Source: a virus
Taxonomy: Duplodnaviria > Caudoviricetes
DNA length: 59,728 nucleotides
Direction: 5' to 3' (one strand)
IMG/VR virus record: IMGVR_UViG_3300018421_000026
Coordinates: 1-59,728 of that record
The notes below the pieces were generated by a model. It did no database searches. It worked only from the letters and a program-made list of their open reading frames with translations, and had not been told where the DNA came from. The position numbers were made by a program, and so were the translations under genes. This document shows, in pieces, positions 1,905-50,824 of this stretch (within the stretch, counting starts at the first letter, position 1; every line of letters begins with the position of its first letter).

Positions 1905-2300
1905 CTATTGAAGCGGGTTAGCCAGTGCGTCCATGCCACGCCATAAGTCCTCAATCTCTTTTTGCACCTTACCAATGTTTTCTGCTTTTTCTGCTGCCTG
2001 ATTTACCTTCAGCACAGACTCTGCCATAGTGGTTTCCATTTCGGCAACCTTATCACGAAGGTCAAGCAGCTGCTCTTGGTTCTTCATAATGCTTTCAAGA
2101 TTAGCACCCAACTCAATCAGCTTATCTGACGCATCAGGCAGCGCTTGTACAGCCGACTCTACCTTTTCTATGCGGCCATAAAACTCTGCTACTGCCCAGA
2201 TGCCGCCTGCCAAAGTCGTAGCAATCGACACAACAATAGCAATCCATACACCCTTGAGATTTACACCGCCTATTTTTAGTTCTGTATCTTCTAGTGACAT
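1905..2300 (-). CDS. Membrane-anchored coiled-coil protein (i-spanin-like topology)
   Basis: N-terminal TM (VWIAIVVSIATTLAGGIWAV) followed by a heptad-rich helical region. Confidence 0.6.
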   Translation of the reverse strand: MSLEDTELKIGGVNLKGVWIAIVVSIATTLAGGIWAVAEFYGRIEKVESAVQALPDASDKLIELGANLESIMKNQEQLLDLRDKVAEMETTMAESVLKVNQAAEKAENIGKVQKEIEDLWRGMDALANPLQ

Positions 2301-3088
2301 TAGTTTAAAGTTCCTTGTTCGTCATAAATTGTTTGTCCCATACCCATAACTTCTTCCACACTAACTGTTGCATTATTGTATGTAAAAAAGTTGTAGAAAG
2401 TGTGTGTGAAACCAGTGGTTGACCAAGCAAATTTTATGGCTTCATTTGCAGAATCATATGTAGCAATAGCATCAGACATATTTATATTAAATTGCTGGGC
2501 ATCATCGTCAACAGACCCAGTGATAGTTTCTATTCGTGACGCAGCAAGAAAAGCAGCAGCGTCTTGAGCCAAATCTTCTACATCTCCTAGTGCATCATTG
2601 TATACATTAACATCTTGTTGGTCTAAGGTCACATCGTTTTGTTGTATAAAATCTTGAAGCTGTTCTTGTTCAGCTACGTTGTTTTGGTCGGTAGTCTCTG
2701 CCTTATCGGCTACCTCTACAGCTACAGCAATAACCGCAGTTGCATCCACAAACGTATCAATAGCAGTTTCTAACTGCACCATAGTTTCTTCATACTGATT
2801 CTCAAGCATCATCTGCGTGTTGTAATAAATGCGAAGAGACACATCATCAACAGAGTCATTGTATGCTTGCACATCTGCAGGCGTAATAAAAGCAGGCAAC
2901 ACAGTACCATCAGGCGCAACCTTACCGTCTACTGCATAGTATGCTAGACCACCAACAGCATTACGCCCTTGCTGTATCTTGTCAGCAATAATCTTACTGG
3001 CCGCAACCAGTCTATCTATCTCAGTCTCTGCGTGTGCTTGTCCTAAAGCGCTCACTAATAGACAAGCCGCTATCAGTATCTTCTTCAT
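2300..3088 (-). CDS. Secreted acidic helical protein
   Basis: Signal peptide MKKILIAACLLVSALGQAHA-E. Confidence 0.7.
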   Translation of the reverse strand: MKKILIAACLLVSALGQAHAETEIDRLVAASKIIADKIQQGRNAVGGLAYYAVDGKVAPDGTVLPAFITPADVQAYNDSVDDVSLRIYYNTQMMLENQYEETMVQLETAIDTFVDATAVIAVAVEVADKAETTDQNNVAEQEQLQDFIQQNDVTLDQQDVNVYNDALGDVEDLAQDAAAFLAASRIETITGSVDDDAQQFNINMSDAIATYDSANEAIKFAWSTTGFTHTFYNFFTYNNATVSVEEVMGMGQTIYDEQGTLN

Positions 3089-3677
3089 CTGACTCCTCTC
3101 CCCCTATATTAAGAATGCTGTCGTAATGTTTCTTGCGTTTCTTGTAATCAGGTATAAATTTTTCTGGATTCCGTTTCATTGTCATGTAGGCACTTCTTCC
3201 TACTATTAGCTTGCCATTGATAGTTAGTGGACATGGCGTGCCAGATTCAAACATAGAAATCCAGATGGCTTTTTTCTGACACATCAAAGCTACAGCAGCA
3301 ATGTTCATGTTAAGGTCTTTTAGTACCTTTGCATCACGCCGCCTATTACATTCTTCATCTTGCTTATAACCGCCAAAGGACAGACCAAGAACATTTACTT
3401 GCACACCTGCGCTACGACCCGCAAGGCAAGTGTCCTGCCCATTAGACATATATGTAGGGGCAATAGCAGAAGGCGGCGGTGTTTCTCGTGAGGCAGCACC
3501 TGCGCCATTGTAGTTATTGGTTGTTGACGGATTGTTACTACTAACTGTGCTGTTAGTGTTTACTGTGCTGGTGTTTAGGTCGCCCGTCTGGTCATTTGTT
3601 TGTGCATGAGCAAGACCTGGCATAAATGCCAAGACAAAAAGAACTAGTGCTGTTGCTCTCGCATTACTTTGAAACAC
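3021..3677 (-). CDS. Secreted Cys-containing hypothetical protein
   Basis: Signal peptide ending AHA-Q, N/T/S-rich linker, four Cys; start uncertain. Confidence 0.65.
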   Translation of the reverse strand: MFQSNARATALVLFVLAFMPGLAHAQTNDQTGDLNTSTVNTNSTVSSNNPSTTNNYNGAGAASRETPPPSAIAPTYMSNGQDTCLAGRSAGVQVNVLGLSFGGYKQDEECNRRRDAKVLKDLNMNIAAVALMCQKKAIWISMFESGTPCPLTINGKLIVGRSAYMTMKRNPEKFIPDYKKRKKHYDSILNIGGEESDEEDTDSGLSISERFRTSTRRD

Positions 3678-42263: not shown

Positions 42264-42621
42264 TCGCTACTACTTCTTTACTTCGGAGCATGACCCGAAG
42301 GGCAAGTATAATGAGGTTCACCCCTGCCGCATCGTGAGAACACGTTGGCGTGAGCAGGGCTGGTATCTCAACTCGTTCTATCGTGTGTCCCGCTTCGCTG
42401 GCATCAAGCTGGGTAGAGTATCGCTTGGCTTGGTGACAGGCTACAGGCGGTATCGCATACCTTATGTGGCATACCATTGGGAAGGTGGCTTCACCCTGCC
42501 CGTTGTTCTTGTGTCTTGGATAACAGGCAGCAAGCTGAAGTATATTCGCTGCACCTATGGTGACAGGAAACTAAAGACATCATTGAAAATGATTTGGAGA
42601 AAGTGGATAAAAGATGCTTGA
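42253..42621 (+). CDS. Basic aromatic-rich hypothetical protein
   Basis: Overlapping gene chain. Confidence 0.55.
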   Translation: MMTNRYYFFTSEHDPKGKYNEVHPCRIVRTRWREQGWYLNSFYRVSRFAGIKLGRVSLGLVTGYRRYRIPYVAYHWEGGFTLPVVLVSWITGSKLKYIRCTYGDRKLKTSLKMIWRKWIKDA

Positions 42622-42646
42622 CTTACCCCTATCAATATCGTATATT
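42618..42646 (+). promoter_or_regulatory. Promoter
   Basis: TTGACT-17-TATATT. Confidence 0.6.
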
Positions 42647-42718
42647 GAAATTGCAATCATGGTTGGCGTGTGGCTTAACACCTCAATCAATGTGTATAAT
42701 TTTATGAAAGGATAGCCT

Positions 42719-43009
42719 ATGGCTAGATATGAAGTTTCGTTTGTGATTGACACAGACGTTGAAGATGCAGGACAGCAGCCGTGGTGGCTCATGCTGGGCG
42801 AGAAGCCTATGCCTATCGAGTGGCTTGAGTATGTCATGGTGCGTGACCTGCAGGTGGACGAACAGGTATTGGATGTTGAGTTCATGCCTGATACAATCAA
42901 TGTGATTGACATGGTGCATAGACCAGAGCCACCGAAGCCAACCCTACAACTAGTGGTGAACAACGATGACAACGATACTGAACATACCGAAGTTCCTGAA
43001 AAGGAATAA
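42719..43009 (+). CDS. Acidic hypothetical protein
   Basis: RBS AAAGGA. Confidence 0.6.
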   Translation: MARYEVSFVIDTDVEDAGQQPWWLMLGEKPMPIEWLEYVMVRDLQVDEQVLDVEFMPDTINVIDMVHRPEPPKPTLQLVVNNDDNDTEHTEVPEKE

Positions 43010-43112
43010 GGCAGCAAAAGCCCTGTCCGAAGGACAGAACAAACCCCAAGTAATCCCTGCCAAGAAAGGCAAGGGCAGCTATAAACGAAAAGGAAAACAT
43101 CGTGCCGAATAA
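42966..43112 (+). CDS. arfA: ArfA-like alternative ribosome-rescue factor (48 aa, not in ORF track)
   Basis: MTTILNIPKFLKRNKAAKALSEGQNKPQVIPAKKGKGSYKRKGKHRAE contains the ArfA signature KKGKGSYxRKGKH. Confidence 0.7.
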   Translation: MTTILNIPKFLKRNKAAKALSEGQNKPQVIPAKKGKGSYKRKGKHRAE

Positions 43113-43273
43113 ACACACGAAAATGTTCCGCCCGTGGTATGAGGACAACATTCTCAGCCCGTGGCGGAAGGTAAAAACTGGTGACAAATCATACACTTAC
43201 GAGAAGGTGAAGCACATACGTTCACACAAGGACGATAGGCTTGGCCGTGAGTGGGAACACGAAAGGATTTGGA

Positions 43274-43711
43274 ATGATTGAAACATTCTTCGCTAATGCA
43301 CTGATGTGCATGGCAATCAACATCTATCACGAAGCACGCAACGAGTCTATCATTGGACAGATTGCAGTCGGGCAGGTGGTGATGAATCGTGTTGCAGATG
43401 AACGCTTCCCGAACACAGTATGTGAAGTGGTCACTCAAGGTAAACATTACATGACCAAAGATGGCATCCGCTATCCTGTCAAAGACCGTTGCCATTTCAG
43501 TTGGTATTGTGACGGGCTAGGTGATGCACCACGCAACAGCAAAGCCTTCACGCAATCGCAAGAGGTTGCAGCGATGGTGCTGGAAGGGTGGACAGGCACG
43601 TTCCTCGAAGGTGCTACACACTACCATGCTGACTATGTGTTTCCTACATGGGCAGCACACCACACGAAGATTGTCAAGATTGACAGCCATATTTTTTACA
43701 GGTGGGACTGA
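43274..43711 (+). CDS. Cell wall hydrolase, SleB/Hydrolase_2 family
   Basis: NIYHEARNE, V.NRV, FPNTVCEVV, FSW, GATHYHADYV.P.W, HIFY. Confidence 0.9.
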   Translation: MIETFFANALMCMAINIYHEARNESIIGQIAVGQVVMNRVADERFPNTVCEVVTQGKHYMTKDGIRYPVKDRCHFSWYCDGLGDAPRNSKAFTQSQEVAAMVLEGWTGTFLEGATHYHADYVFPTWAAHHTKIVKIDSHIFYRWD

Positions 43712-44193
43712 TGAATATATTTGTATTACACGAAGATGCTATCGAAGCAGCCGACATGTATTGCGACAAGCACGTGCCTAAGATGGTGCTTGAGTTGGCA
43801 CAGATGCTGACCACGGCACACCATGCACATGGCGTAGCCAGGGACGGGATGTATAAGGTAGCACACCTGAACCACCCCTGCTCAAAGTGGGTGCGTGAGA
43901 CTGGCGGCAACTATCGCTGGGCTTATCACCACTTTGTGCGGCTGGCCTTCAACTATTGGTGGCGCTTCGGCAAGATGCACAAGTCATACGCTGACCACAG
44001 CATCAGGCTCATCCGACCACCTGAACCTATCGTCAGCGACACAAGCATGACGGACTTTGCACAGGCTATGCCTGATGAATACAAGGACGAGGACGCAGTG
44101 ACTGCATACCGCACCTACTACATCAACGACAAGCAACGCTTTGCCAAGTGGGAGAAGGGTGTGCCGACACCAGATTGGTGGCCTAATGATTGA
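43711..44193 (+). CDS. Pyrimidine-dimer DNA glycosylase-like (T4 endonuclease V-related) protein
   Basis: MNIF.L...DKHV.KM.LE.AQML, H.NHPC..W, F.QAMP, AYR.YY. Confidence 0.7.
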   Translation: MNIFVLHEDAIEAADMYCDKHVPKMVLELAQMLTTAHHAHGVARDGMYKVAHLNHPCSKWVRETGGNYRWAYHHFVRLAFNYWWRFGKMHKSYADHSIRLIRPPEPIVSDTSMTDFAQAMPDEYKDEDAVTAYRTYYINDKQRFAKWEKGVPTPDWWPND

Positions 44194-46123: not shown

Positions 46124-47764
46124 ATGAACACTGAAAGAGCAAATGTAGTCAGCCGTGGTGAGTGCGGCAAGTGTGGTTCGTCCGATGGCAATGTGCTATA
46201 CGACAACGGGTCACGCTATTGCTTTGTGTGTGAGACATACACGGCAGCAGAAGGCTCTGACAATCTTGTCAGCGTCACAGAACGAAAGGTTCATACAATG
46301 AATACACCATTGAGTCGAGGGCAGTTCGCTGCCATTGAAGACCGTGGTATCACTATTGATACTGCCAAAGCTTATGGCATTACTGTCACAGGTGACAAAC
46401 AGATATACCCATATCACGATGTGAATGGTCAGCATGTTGCGAACAAGGTTCGACATGTATCCACCAAAGACTTCCATGCCGAAGGCCGACTGCCACAGGC
46501 AGGGTTGTTTGGTCAGCATTTGTTTCGTGATGGTGGCAAGTATATCACAATCACCGAAGGTGAGTTGGATGCTGTGTCTGCTTATCAGATGATGGGCAGC
46601 AAGTGGCCTGTCGTGTCCGTCCGTAATGGCGCACAGTCTGCAGTCAAGGATGTGAAGGCACAGTTCGAGTGGCTCAACAAGTTCGACAACATCGTTGTGT
46701 GCTTCGACAATGACGAGCATGGCAATGCAGCAGCCGCAAAGGTTGCGTCCATCTTCGAGCCTAACAAGTGCCGCATCGTGAAGCTGAAGGCAAAGGATGC
46801 CAACGAGTATCTCAAGCACGGTAAGACCGAAGAGTTTATCAAGCGGTGGTGGGACGCAGCGCCTTACACACCTGCAGGTATCGTGAACCTCAAGGACTTC
46901 GAGGGCTTGTATGATGACGAGGACAGGCAGTCCGTTGACTACCCATACAAGGGCATGAACGAGTTGCTCTATGGTATGCGTACTGGTGAGCTTATCACCT
47001 TCACAGCAGGCACTGGTGCAGGTAAGTCCAGCATCATGCGTGAGCTTGAGCATCACCTACTCAACAACACCGACAGCAACATTGGCATCATCAGCCTTGA
47101 AGAGAACGTCAAGCAGACCATCTTCCACCTGATGTCTGTCGAGGCAAGCAAGCGACTCTACATCAAGGAGATTCGTGAGCAAGTTCCGCAGGAACAGCTA
47201 ACACAATACGAGCAAGCCACTGTAGGCACAGGCCGTGTGTTTGCCTTCGACCACTTCGGTTCGATACAGACAGACGAAATCCTGGCACGTGTACGCTACA
47301 TGGTCAAGGCACTTGACTGTCGCTACATCATCATTGACCACCTCTCGATACTTGTATCGGGCTTGGAAGGTGAGGACGAGCGCCGCAACATTGACAAGAT
47401 GATGACGCAGCTACGCTCACTGGTCGAGGAGACACAGTGCTGTATGCTTCTGGTGTCACACTTGCGCCGTGCATCAGGTGACAAGGGACAGGAGCAGGGT
47501 GTGCAGATTAGTCTGTCCATGCTACGTGGCTCACACAGCATCGCACAAATCAGTGACGCAGTGATTGCAATGGAGCGTGACCAGCAGGCATCCGACCCTG
47601 TGGTTGCGAACACCACGACCATTCGTGTTCTCAAAAACCGCTATGCAGGTGAGACAGGCATCGCTACCTACCTGTTGTATGACCGTGAGACTGGTCGTAT
47701 GCAGGAGATTGATGACCCTAACGCCGAAGACTTTGACACAGTAGAAGCAGGAGACTACCTATGA
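46124..47764 (+). CDS. DNA primase-helicase (T7 gp4-like)
   Basis: CxxC...CxxC Zn finger, TOPRIM EGELDA/FDND, Walker A GTGAGKS, IIIDH, LRGS, KNRYAG. Confidence 0.95.
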   Translation: MNTERANVVSRGECGKCGSSDGNVLYDNGSRYCFVCETYTAAEGSDNLVSVTERKVHTMNTPLSRGQFAAIEDRGITIDTAKAYGITVTGDKQIYPYHDVNGQHVANKVRHVSTKDFHAEGRLPQAGLFGQHLFRDGGKYITITEGELDAVSAYQMMGSKWPVVSVRNGAQSAVKDVKAQFEWLNKFDNIVVCFDNDEHGNAAAAKVASIFEPNKCRIVKLKAKDANEYLKHGKTEEFIKRWWDAAPYTPAGIVNLKDFEGLYDDEDRQSVDYPYKGMNELLYGMRTGELITFTAGTGAGKSSIMRELEHHLLNNTDSNIGIISLEENVKQTIFHLMSVEASKRLYIKEIREQVPQEQLTQYEQATVGTGRVFAFDHFGSIQTDEILARVRYMVKALDCRYIIIDHLSILVSGLEGEDERRNIDKMMTQLRSLVEETQCCMLLVSHLRRASGDKGQEQGVQISLSMLRGSHSIAQISDAVIAMERDQQASDPVVANTTTIRVLKNRYAGETGIATYLLYDRETGRMQEIDDPNAEDFDTVEAGDYL

Positions 47765-48225
47765 AACTCAAACCAATACAAGGCGCAGTGAACATCCCGT
47801 TCAGTCGCCAGCGTTACGAAACATCTGACGCACCAGCGAAGGACATCGTGATGGATTACCTACAGCGTAATGGTCACGAGATTCTTGACAGCAAAGAAGA
47901 TTTTTCTGTTGACATTAAGTCAAAGAAAGGCGATAATACATACTTCAGCGAAGTGGAAATCAAGTATGGGTGGAAGGGTGACTGGAATCCCAGCTGGAAA
48001 GAGATACGCATTCCGTATCGTAAGCACAAGCTGATTAACAAAGTGGCCGATGCCGATGGCTTCTTCAACTTCTACATCCTACGCTCTGACCGCAAGGCAG
48101 CATGGCGCATCAAGGACAACGTAGTTGCAGAGTCAGAGGTGCGTGAGGCACAAGGACGCAACATTGTGAAGGGCGAACACTTCTTCCACATACCATACGA
48201 GAAAGCAGAGTTGATTGAACTATGA
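47761..48225 (+). CDS. PD-(D/E)xK nuclease-like hypothetical protein
   Basis: VD...EVEIK motif. Confidence 0.5.
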   Translation: MKLKPIQGAVNIPFSRQRYETSDAPAKDIVMDYLQRNGHEILDSKEDFSVDIKSKKGDNTYFSEVEIKYGWKGDWNPSWKEIRIPYRKHKLINKVADADGFFNFYILRSDRKAAWRIKDNVVAESEVREAQGRNIVKGEHFFHIPYEKAELIEL

Positions 48226-49889
48226 AGAGATTAGCAGTAGACATTGAAACAGATGGCCTTGATGCCAAAGAAATCTACTGCGTAGTAGCACGAGACTTAG
48301 ATGAAAAGAGAACCTATACATTTACACCCAAGACTATTGAGAATTGCAAGCAACTCTTGGAGTCGGCTGACATTCTGGTGTTTCATAATGGCGTGTCTTT
48401 TGATGCTCCCGTTCTGAAACGTCTACTAAATATCAACATACCTCTAGACAAGATACGTGATACGCTTATCCTGTCGCAGATGGCTAACCCTGTGCGTGAA
48501 GGCGGTCACTCGCTTGAAGCATGGGGTAAGTCTCTAGGGTATAACAAGATAGAGTTTGACGATTGGTCAGAGTATTCAGACGAGATGTTGAAGTATTGCA
48601 TACGTGACGTAGAGATTACGGAGCGTGTGTATAACATCCTCGTACCAGAGATGAAGCGGTTCTCGCCACGCAGCATACGCCTTGAGCATCAGGTGCGTGC
48701 AATCATAGACCAGCAAGAGCGTAACGGCTTTGCACTCAATGTGCCTGCTGCTATGCAGCTGATGGCTAGGCTGTCGGACGAAGCATCACAAATCAAGGAA
48801 CAGCTACAGCATAAGTTCCCACCGATTGTTGAGATTCGTATATCCGAAAAGACTGGCAAGCGATTGAAGGACAAGGTGACTGTGTTCAACCCCGCATCAC
48901 GCAAGCAGATTGCAGAGCGTCTGTCGGAGTTGGGCTGGAAGCCTCATGCCTACACAGAAAAAGGTCAGGCCATTGTATCAGAGGATGTGCTGTCGAAGGT
49001 TGACATACCAGAGGCACAGATGGTCGCACGCTTTCTTCTCTTGGAGAAACGTGTCTCACAAATTAAATCTTGGATAGAAGCAGTCGGTGATGATGGGCGT
49101 GTGCATGGTAAAGTGTGGACGCTGGGTACAATCACTGGTCGTATGACACACACTTCGCCCAACATGGCGCAGATACCTGCTGTCTACTCACCATATGGAA
49201 AGGAATGTAGAGATGTCTGGACTACTAGAACCCACGCTGATAGCATTGGTAATAGTGTACTTCTGGGTTGTGATGCGTCAGGACTAGAGCTTCGTATGCT
49301 GGCACATTACATGAACGACAGGGACTTCACACGTGAGGTTGTTGACGGTGATGTGCATACCGCAAACCAGAACGCAGCAGGATTACCAACACGAGACAAC
49401 GCCAAGACATTCATCTATGCCTTCCTGTATGGTGCAGGTGCGGCTAAGATTGGTAAGATTGTAGATGGTACAGCTAAAGATGGTAAGAAATTAATTGATA
49501 AGTTTTTATCCAACATGCCTGCACTCAAGGCGCTACGCAGCAAGGTAGACAAGCTTGCATCACGTGGCTATGTGCTAGGTATTGATGGGCGTGTGTTGCA
49601 GATACGTTCTGCACATGCAGCACTCAACTCCCTACTCCAGGGGGCAGGTGCAATCGTCTGTAAGGAATGGCTCAAGCACATTATCATACAGGCAACCAAG
49701 CGCAACCTTGACTTCAAACTCGTTGCGAGTATTCACGATGAGTACCAGTTCGAGGTTCGCAAAGACCACGCTGAAGAACTTGGCGAGGTTACAAAGCTGG
49801 CAATGAAACTGACAGAGCAATCGCTCAAGGTTCGTTGTCCTCTCGACAGTGAATACAAGGTCGGGAATACGTGGGCAGAAACCCACTAG
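48222..49889 (+). CDS. polA: DNA polymerase family A (T7 gp5-like)
   Basis: DIETDG exo I, HNGVSFD, DASGLELR motif A, RDNAKTFIYAFLYG motif B, IHDE motif C. Confidence 0.97.
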   Translation: MKRLAVDIETDGLDAKEIYCVVARDLDEKRTYTFTPKTIENCKQLLESADILVFHNGVSFDAPVLKRLLNINIPLDKIRDTLILSQMANPVREGGHSLEAWGKSLGYNKIEFDDWSEYSDEMLKYCIRDVEITERVYNILVPEMKRFSPRSIRLEHQVRAIIDQQERNGFALNVPAAMQLMARLSDEASQIKEQLQHKFPPIVEIRISEKTGKRLKDKVTVFNPASRKQIAERLSELGWKPHAYTEKGQAIVSEDVLSKVDIPEAQMVARFLLLEKRVSQIKSWIEAVGDDGRVHGKVWTLGTITGRMTHTSPNMAQIPAVYSPYGKECRDVWTTRTHADSIGNSVLLGCDASGLELRMLAHYMNDRDFTREVVDGDVHTANQNAAGLPTRDNAKTFIYAFLYGAGAAKIGKIVDGTAKDGKKLIDKFLSNMPALKALRSKVDKLASRGYVLGIDGRVLQIRSAHAALNSLLQGAGAIVCKEWLKHIIIQATKRNLDFKLVASIHDEYQFEVRKDHAEELGEVTKLAMKLTEQSLKVRCPLDSEYKVGNTWAETH

Positions 49890-50544: not shown

Positions 50545-50748
50545 ATGACAGACCTACCAGTACAATTGGTATTATTTTATTTTCTAATCGCAGGCTTCTT
50601 TGTCGGGTGGGTTATGCCCCGTGGCAAATATCTAAAAGCCTTTCAATTGCGGCTACTTAAAGGCTTGCACAACTTCTTCGCAGACGAGGAAGAGTATATT
50701 GCACACAAAGTAGAGCGCATTCGCAAGCATACACGCCGTAAGAAGTAG
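50545..50748 (+). CDS. Small membrane protein
   Basis: N-terminal TM; RBS AGGAG. Confidence 0.6.
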   Translation: MTDLPVQLVLFYFLIAGFFVGWVMPRGKYLKAFQLRLLKGLHNFFADEEEYIAHKVERIRKHTRRKK

Positions 50749-50824
50749 GACACGTAGCTCAACTGGATAGAGCAGCAGACTTCTAATCTGCAGGTTGCAG
50801 GTTCAAGTCCTGCCGTGTTCACCA
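50748..50824 (+). tRNA. tRNA-Arg (anticodon UCU)
   Basis: GGACACG/CGTGTTC acceptor, GCTC/GAGC D-arm, GCAGA-CTTCTAA-TCTGC anticodon arm, GTTCAAG T-loop, encoded CCA. Confidence 0.97.

Follow-up and report, generated by a model that had tools for sequence, protein, structure and literature searches.

Gene organization of the locus

The window (the whole stretch of DNA analysed, 59,728 bp) is a complete virus record (CheckV estimate, 100%) with a GC content of about 45%. Its structural genes are located on the minus strand, between 2.3 and 36.9 kb, and a plus-strand block starts at about 38 kb. Within this block, a 48-amino-acid (aa) open reading frame (ORF) resembling ArfA, the bacterial factor that releases ribosomes stalled on damaged mRNAs, sits in a tightly packed plus-strand gene chain that precedes the genes for the primase/helicase and the DNA polymerase. 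The ORF listing gives this frame at 42966..43112 on the plus strand, running from an ATG through a basic motif at its end to a TAA, as the preliminary description of this DNA had it. The features discussed here are as follows:

42719..43009, plus strand: upstream 96-aa acidic ORF, overlapping the ArfA-like ORF by 44 nucleotides (nt)
42953..42959, plus strand: Shine–Dalgarno-like GTGGTGA, ending 6 nt ahead of the ATG
42966..43112, plus strand: putative ArfA-family ORF, ATG, 48 codons, then TAA
43005..43061, plus strand: codons for residues 14–32, equivalent to the A-site and RF2-contacting part of E. coli ArfA (column counts, hhalign)
43062..43100, plus strand: codons for K33–H45, the basic motif that occupies the vacant mRNA tunnel of the 30S subunit in E. 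coli ArfA, 12 of 13 residues identical to E. coli ArfA
43110..43112, plus strand: TAA stop, three codons past H45 and within the start region of the next ORF
43102..43281, plus strand: downstream 59-aa ORF, GTG start, overlapping the ArfA-like ORF by 11 nt
43241–43711, plus strand: Hydrolase_2 (Pfam) cell-wall hydrolase, 3′ of the ArfA-like ORF
43702–44193, plus strand: phrog_624 'DNA binding protein', 3′ of the ArfA-like ORF
46124–47764, plus-strand block: T7-type primase/helicase
48222–49889, plus-strand block: family-A DNA polymerase
50748–50824, plus strand: tRNA-Arg (anticodon TCT), the sole tRNA of the phage

Neither the 96-aa upstream ORF nor the 59-aa downstream ORF has a Pfam or PHROG match. 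The downstream ORF starts with GTG in this phage and with ATG in three relatives, and the 44-nt overlap with the upstream ORF is retained in all eight sequences compared (this phage and seven relatives). The GGTGA of the Shine–Dalgarno-like site is present in 6 of 8 relatives; as the site falls within the upstream coding frame, this conservation is not independent evidence. Just 5′ of the 96-aa ORF lies a 33-codon hydrophobic ORF (42614–42715, plus strand), whose peptide is kept even at 65% nt identity (L007, the most distant relative). A sigma-70-like site at 42618–42646 was considered as the operon promoter and rejected, since it lies inside this conserved 33-codon ORF and L007 loses both hexamers while keeping the peptide. 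A minus-strand terminator-like hairpin within the ArfA-like ORF (43040–43020) was treated as a chance occurrence, given that its stem codons differ in L005 and L006 and that minus-strand genes are absent from its vicinity.

No RNase, release factor, tmRNA or SmpB gene was found in the gene neighbourhood examined, and ARAGORN detected no tmRNA in the 59,728-bp record. The neighbouring genes offer no hint of a counter-defence or decoy role. Across 62 loci, phrog_624 occurs 3′ of the ArfA-like ORF in 17 and Hydrolase_2 in 15; the loci with these neighbours represent two phage clades, whose ArfA-like proteins differ.

The large terminase is nearest (about 40% aa identity) to those of the Pelagibacter phages HTVC023P and HTVC027P and of a phage recorded for Gammaproteobacteria. 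A 2.5-kb DNA query returned no DNA-level match to cultured phages, and the 48-aa query returned none either; both nulls probably reflect the low-complexity filter and divergence, because longer homologue queries found phage copies. Near-identical sequence is present in runs labelled marine or salt-marsh metagenome. The assembled contigs of two libraries recorded as true RNA include one contig each from this region (42672–42861 and 43367–43532), neither over the ArfA-like ORF; a 480-nt contig (42889–43348) spans the ORF, but its source run is flagged as probably DNA.

Conservation of the reading frame

Relatives were collected by a pattern scan of viral contigs, in which 277 stretches matched and 61 loci were confirmed as encoding a relative. 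Eight of these loci (L002–L008 and L058) belong to related phages with 65–96% nt identity in the region. The preliminary description had asked that the frame be conserved in related phages, and it is open in all eight contigs. The pN/pS ratio of this phage's ORF against each relative ranges from 0.14 to 0.82. Pooled over the ten pairs among five gap-free sequences (this phage, L002, L003, L004 and L007; first 135 nt), with L005, L006, L058 and L008 left out for indels or a cut end, the ratio is 0.20, with zero stops. The other five frames have a pN/pS of 0.94–2.9, stops, or both; the antisense frame that shares the wobble positions has a pN/pS of 0.25 but contains 5 stops. Since only the ArfA frame combines the absence of stops with a low pN/pS, we consider a long minus-strand ORF across the region to be non-coding. 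All 8 nucleotide differences between L002 and L003 are synonymous, the nucleotide changes in the motif codons among the relatives are 100% synonymous, and L005 and L006 share an in-frame 18-nt insertion. These comparisons indicate that the ArfA-like ORF is a real gene under purifying selection.

That the frame is open by chance where two real genes meet, which the shortness of the ORF, its overlap with both neighbours and the absence of its exact sequence from a 15-billion-protein collection might suggest, is extremely improbable and already refuted as far as sequence analysis goes, given a frame open in this phage and in eight relatives over 65–96% nt identity, a stop-free pooled pN/pS set against five frames with stops, ratios of at least 0.94, or both, an indel that preserves the frame and the concordant HMM evidence below.

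Relationship to the ArfA family

The Pfam profile PF03889 (ArfA) matches the 48-aa ORF with 24.1 bits (E = 2.5e-5), 1.4 bits short of its curated gathering cut-off of 25.5 bits. When ten relatives were scored singly, seven passed this cut-off:

Passing (bits): L002 26.2, L007 29.0, L058 31.8, P0002 27.4, P0003 34.1, L017 27.8, L042 30.0
Failing (bits): L005 24.4, P0004 15.2, HTVC027P gp30 20.2

The 48-aa ORF and L005, both slightly under the cut-off, have N25 in common, and L002, which is 94% identical, passes. A six-frame PF03889 search of the whole 59.7-kb record yielded one match (E = 1.3e-6), covering 43044–43100; the Pfam matches in this clade span profile positions 23–44 only. The 48-aa ORF has no NCBIfam match. 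It has weak matches to phrog_37108, an unnamed PHROGs family (24.4 bits, E = 5e-5), and to DUF7230 (PF23876; 19.7 bits, E = 1e-3; family cut-off, 27 bits), the latter matched by only 2 of the 34 family members defined below.

Among the PDB chains searched with phmmer, only ArfA, represented by six distinct sequences, scored below E = 0.02, and the next match had an E value of 0.67. The nearest ESM Atlas clusters are likewise ArfA (score 0.93; 19 of 30 matches). In protein searches, a word-indexed method found one relative and an exhaustive method found five at E ≤ 1e-3. One of these five, P0005, was taken as a chance match: this 263-aa protein consists of about five tandem repeats of about 52 residues and aligns over four stretches (E = 9e-4) without the motif. 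We built an alignment of 34 members (hereafter A1) from this phage's ORF, 30 viral loci (selected among the 61 for their distinct forms) and three proteins that the exhaustive search had found. All but one of the 34 members match PF03889 at E ≤ 0.01 (best, 6.3e-21). In a PDB search with the A1 profile, chains of E. coli ArfA were matched with 41.6 bits (E = 8.5e-10), the aligned part spanning 43 residues of the chain (10–52 of 5u4i_w). In the HMM comparison with ArfA proposed in the preliminary description, seven relatives thus exceed 25.5 bits and the A1 profile matches E. coli ArfA, and the ORF itself, at 24.1 bits, falls just short.

The similarity is not confined to the motif. With the motif cut off, hhalign aligned 24 pre-motif residues of 37 short-type sequences with 30 of 9 gammaproteobacterial-type ArfAs (85%, E = 6.3e-6) over 21 columns flush with the motif, the sequences having been chosen by their motif and not by their upstream part. 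Because the pre-motif part aligns with the motif removed, the homology appears to run from about residue 13 to residue 45. PF03889, the A1 profile and the motif-less alignment therefore agree with the ArfA homology first claimed, and the 48-aa ORF very probably belongs to the ArfA family. A basic peptide acting away from the ribosome, for instance in nucleic acid binding, could resemble ArfA by convergence, and the strongest identity does fall in a lysine- and glycine-rich stretch. However, the match of 12 of 13 motif residues at equal residue numbers, the continuation of the similarity upstream of the motif and the orthologues above the curated Pfam cut-off render this explanation very unlikely.

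Basic motif and release factor-facing region

In the phmmer alignments, residues 18–45 of the ORF correspond to residues 18–45 of the 72-aa chain 5h5u_3, and residues 14–45 to residues 14–45 of 7oj0_6. The gap-free alignment described at the outset, with N14, L20, V29 and the motif at equal numbers, is thereby reproduced. The residues identical to E. coli ArfA are N14, L20, V29, K33–Y39 and R41–H45, which make up 15 of the 32 aligned positions, and the residues ahead of N14 have no similarity to E. coli ArfA detectable by phmmer or profile search. The basic motif (K33–H45) is the most similar part, and its K33, G35–Y39 and R41 are invariant in all 34 members of A1. According to passages of PMC5378476, residues 31–48 of E. 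coli ArfA are located in the mRNA tunnel, 47 residues suffice for activity and truncation after M40 inactivates the protein.

Upstream of the motif, positions 18, 19, 24 and 25 are K, A, Q and N in the phage ORF versus A, L, L and F in E. coli, in agreement with the loss of A18, L24 and F25 noted previously, where the ORF has K, Q and N. In E. coli, the patch made up of L19, L24 and F25 binds Trp319 in the switch loop of RF2 and accounts for the RF2 specificity, and A18 is a core residue whose substitution in A18T leaves RF2 binding intact without peptide release, as reported in the portions of PMC5378476 that deal with these residues. Of the 34 members of A1, 28 have K or R at position 18; at position 25, 23 have Y, F or H and 5 have N. 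Within the clade of this phage, position 25 varies among N, Y, H and F, and it is Y in the 94%-identical relatives, so that the loss of the aromatic residue is a trait of this ORF and its nearest kin. By these counts, the short subfamily as a whole differs from E. coli in the activation patch, and this ORF differs further in having lost the aromatic residue. Other upstream positions are conserved in A1: N14 (30/34), A17 (32/34), a hydrophobic residue at 20 (34/34), and V or I at 29 (31/34) and 30 (34/34). A complex prediction for the phage peptide (with A1) and E. coli RF2 gave a score of 0.01 and a mark of 0.32, which speaks neither for nor against an interaction; E. coli RF2 serves here as a stand-in from another host, and the natural contact is made on the ribosome.

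A short, stop-terminated form

The preliminary description regarded the phage protein as a ready-made short form, and this holds: it ends at residue 48, with a TAA at codon 49 and residues 31–48 all retained, and no plus-strand terminator-like site occurs in or just after the ORF. Passages of PMC8012679 describe E. coli arfA as encoding 72 residues, with a stem-loop that causes termination or RNase III cleavage and thereby yields a non-stop mRNA under tmRNA control. The hydrophobic tail and the in-frame hairpin or terminator of bacterial arfA are missing in the phage ORF. With its own stop, no hydrophobic tail and no in-frame terminator, tmRNA feedback is unlikely. A hairpin at 43125–43171 was considered as a counterpart of the RNase III or terminator element of arfA and rejected, as it lies past the stop, inside the next ORF, and has no T-run; its z score is −3.2, but its covariation term is +0.97 and its outer stem is broken in more distant relatives.

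Such short forms with a stop codon are not unusual and predominate in viral contigs. Among 47 distinct viral open frames, 35 stop no more than 16 residues past the motif tyrosine and 12 extend 17–74 residues beyond it, and among the gammaproteobacterial loci with known tails, 3 of 12 stop within 16 residues. The run-on viral frames include L009, L025, L029, L034, L035, L044, L049 and L062, and the tails of close relatives (for example, L029, L035 and L044) differ greatly in length and sequence. Such variable tails would be in keeping with a message cut short of its stop codon, as happens with bacterial arfA; some of these contigs may be bacterial.

ArfA-like proteins in other phages

The initial characterization of the gene as hidden did not hold, as public sources already name proteins of near relatives ArfA, and phage ArfAs appear in two papers and one GenBank record. 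The name 'stalled ribosome alternative rescue factor ArfA' is carried by a 55-aa protein (the 90%-identity cluster of the nearest relative) and by a 63%-identical protein. Passages of PMC12753301 identify gp30 of Pelagibacter phage HTVC027P as an ArfA with a PF03889 domain that is highly expressed both early and late, and g10 of Citromicrobium phage vB_CbaS-RXM is called ArfA in the relevant passage of PMC8953757. In GenBank, ATN93434.1 of Pseudoalteromonas phage J2-1 (MF988720.1) is annotated as ArfA. The 48-aa ORF thus adds a member to a kind already named in databases and two papers. In the literature searched, we found no functional test of a phage-borne ArfA.

Stop-terminated forms occur in the cultured phages J2-1 (annotated) and pf16, CRP-212 and Cr30 (unannotated). 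In Pseudomonas phage pf16 (L099), the ArfA-like ORF lies opposite an annotated hypothetical gene; in Caulobacter phage Cr30 (L101), it lies between two genes; and in Roseobacter phage CRP-212 (L100), it is contained, in a different frame, within the annotated end of gp38. A 281-kb jumbo-phage contig (L032) encodes a full-length gammaproteobacterial-type ArfA at 2911–3141 (74.3 bits, profile positions 2–44) with a 37-residue tail, which probably represents a recent host capture because it closely resembles the chromosomal form of Pseudoalteromonas.

ArfA-family ORFs in SAR11 and other bacteria

Cellular counterparts were sought by a motif scan of one genome per species that required K or N after the tyrosine, so that E. 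coli-type sequences were not sought. The scan returned 29 loci: 12 in Gammaproteobacteria (Pseudoalteromonas, Alishewanella, Rheinheimera and Arsukibacterium), 12 in Pelagibacterales, 3 in other Alphaproteobacteria, one in a Proteobacteria metagenome-assembled genome (MAG) and one in Clostridium. The Pelagibacterales forms comprise 35–50 residues, and all 11 distinct frames stop 7–16 residues past the motif tyrosine. On a 234-kb contig (L087), a 38-aa ORF (1992–2108, plus strand; 29.4 bits) lies between response regulator and PfkB kinase genes, with DapB and endonuclease III genes nearby. PF03889 matches at E ≤ 0.001 were found in 66 of 101 Pelagibacteraceae genomes, with 50 of the 101 over the cut-off, and among 14 control genomes only E. 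coli had a match. The ArfA-family ORFs in Pelagibacteraceae chromosomes (genomes G005–G107) are 35–70 codons long.

Table 1 of PMC11633108 gives ArfA in 0 of 2,376 Alphaproteobacteria, and in the passages concerned, reviews, and likewise a survey covering 15,259 genomes, confine ArfA to Beta- and Gammaproteobacteria (and Bacillus BrfA). In the literature searched for ArfA together with SAR11, the relevant passages concern the phage gene only. The presence of the short subfamily among housekeeping genes of SAR11 chromosomes suggests that it is useful, as in rescue, rather than inhibitory; this is our main argument for a rescue function.

Proposed function

On balance, we favour the reading that this phage encodes an ArfA-family rescue factor in the form of an ordinary, stop-terminated 48-residue protein that escapes tmRNA feedback, a view derived from sequence comparison. 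Within this proposal, binding to stalled ribosomes is likely, and release factor-dependent rescue is about an even prospect, or marginally better. The protein would be made from the early, replication-side gene chain. Residues 33–45 would insert into the mRNA tunnel when the message in a ribosome extends no further than the P site, which would restrict binding to ribosomes stalled on truncated messages. The part upstream of the motif would occupy the A site and recruit a class-I release factor of the host, RF2 being the most likely, to cut the peptidyl-tRNA and render the ribosome recyclable. Because the ORF has its own stop codon, no tail and no terminator, its synthesis would not be throttled by tmRNA, unlike that of bacterial arfA, and the factor would be produced whenever the operon is on. 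The likely benefit would be a continued supply of usable ribosomes in infected cells in which host or defence RNases are cutting mRNAs short, although a counter-defence role is a guess.

Against this reading, the E. coli RF2 patch residues L19, L24 and F25 and the core residue A18 appear as A, Q, N and K, respectively, in the alignment. These changes would suit a tunnel-plugging competitor that binds ribosomes with an empty tunnel without activating a release factor, and that either blocks tmRNA–SmpB or host rescue or holds the ribosomes. The binding of RF2 without peptide release by E. coli A18T, described in the portion of PMC5378476 cited above, points in the same direction, and the variation at position 25 in the phage's own clade suggests relaxed constraint there. 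However, K or R at position 18 is a feature of most of the short subfamily, including the SAR11 housekeeping copies, in which an inhibitor is unlikely, and a pure plug would not need the conserved N14, A17, hydrophobic residue 20 and V/I at 29 and 30. We therefore consider a plug unlikely.

The same patch bears on the choice of partner. As it is tied to RF2 specificity via Trp319 and is missing here, the protein could be a rescue factor that works with RF1 or with either release factor, as does Francisella ArfT, which uses both RF1 and RF2 according to passages of PMC8012679. By contrast, the aromatic residue at position 25 persists in two-thirds of the family (23/34) and as Y25 in the 94%-identical relatives, and a changed partner is, in our view, improbable.

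If the proposed function is correct, phages carry a minimal ribosome-recycling device that lacks feedback control, which would bear on how they withstand defences that cut mRNA and the loss of host mRNA that they cause themselves. Phage ArfA genes are common, with 61 loci from one pattern scan of viral contigs. The wider pattern is worth following: most phage forms are short and stop-terminated, and such forms are also found in SAR11 chromosomes. We tentatively suggest that stop-terminated ArfA-like proteins of 35–55 residues might form a separate branch of the family, exempt from tmRNA feedback and common to SAR11-type Alphaproteobacteria and many marine phages, in which the phage copies would act as always-on rescue factors that free ribosomes as messages are cut in the infected cell, possibly with a release factor contact unlike that of E. 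coli. The occurrence of ArfA-family ORFs in about half to two-thirds of the sampled SAR11 genomes may matter more to the ribosome-rescue field.

Comparison with known rescue systems

E. coli ArfA (YhdL; PF03889; PDB 5h5u, 5mdv, 5mgp, 5u4i and 7oj0) is matched by the phage ORF without gaps and with equal numbering over residues 14–45. The two differ in the RF2-activating patch, which is replaced in the phage ORF (A18K, L19A, L24Q and F25N), and in gene structure: the 72-codon frame of E. coli ArfA includes a hydrophobic tail and an RNase III/terminator hairpin, whereas the phage ORF stops after residue 48. The phage ORF is close in length to the 47-residue E. coli core reported as sufficient in the cited part of PMC5378476. 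The families DUF7230 and phrog_37108 are weakly similar to the 48-aa ORF, and neither is a family with a known function.

HTVC027P gp30, J2-1 ATN93434.1 and, by its description in the passage cited above, RXM g10 are small, stop-terminated phage ArfA-family ORFs, like the present one. Unlike the phage ORF, HTVC027P gp30 lies beside the small terminase gene, is extended by 25 residues at its N terminus, carries a diverged motif and scores 20.2 bits; the motif of the J2-1 ArfA is strongly diverged. The short ORFs of Pelagibacteraceae (SAR11) and other Alphaproteobacteria have the same pattern of N-x-x-A-K, aromatic residue 25 and V/I-V/I, with at most 61% identity to the phage ORF. The SAR11 ORFs are cellular and lie among housekeeping genes at a GC content of 26–29%, whereas that of the phage record is about 45%. 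ArfT of Francisella and BrfA of Bacillus subtilis are likewise small, release factor-dependent rescue factors in which a basic tail senses the empty tunnel, as passages of PMC8012679 describe. These two are called sequence-unrelated in the same passages, whereas the phage ORF appears to be directly homologous to ArfA.
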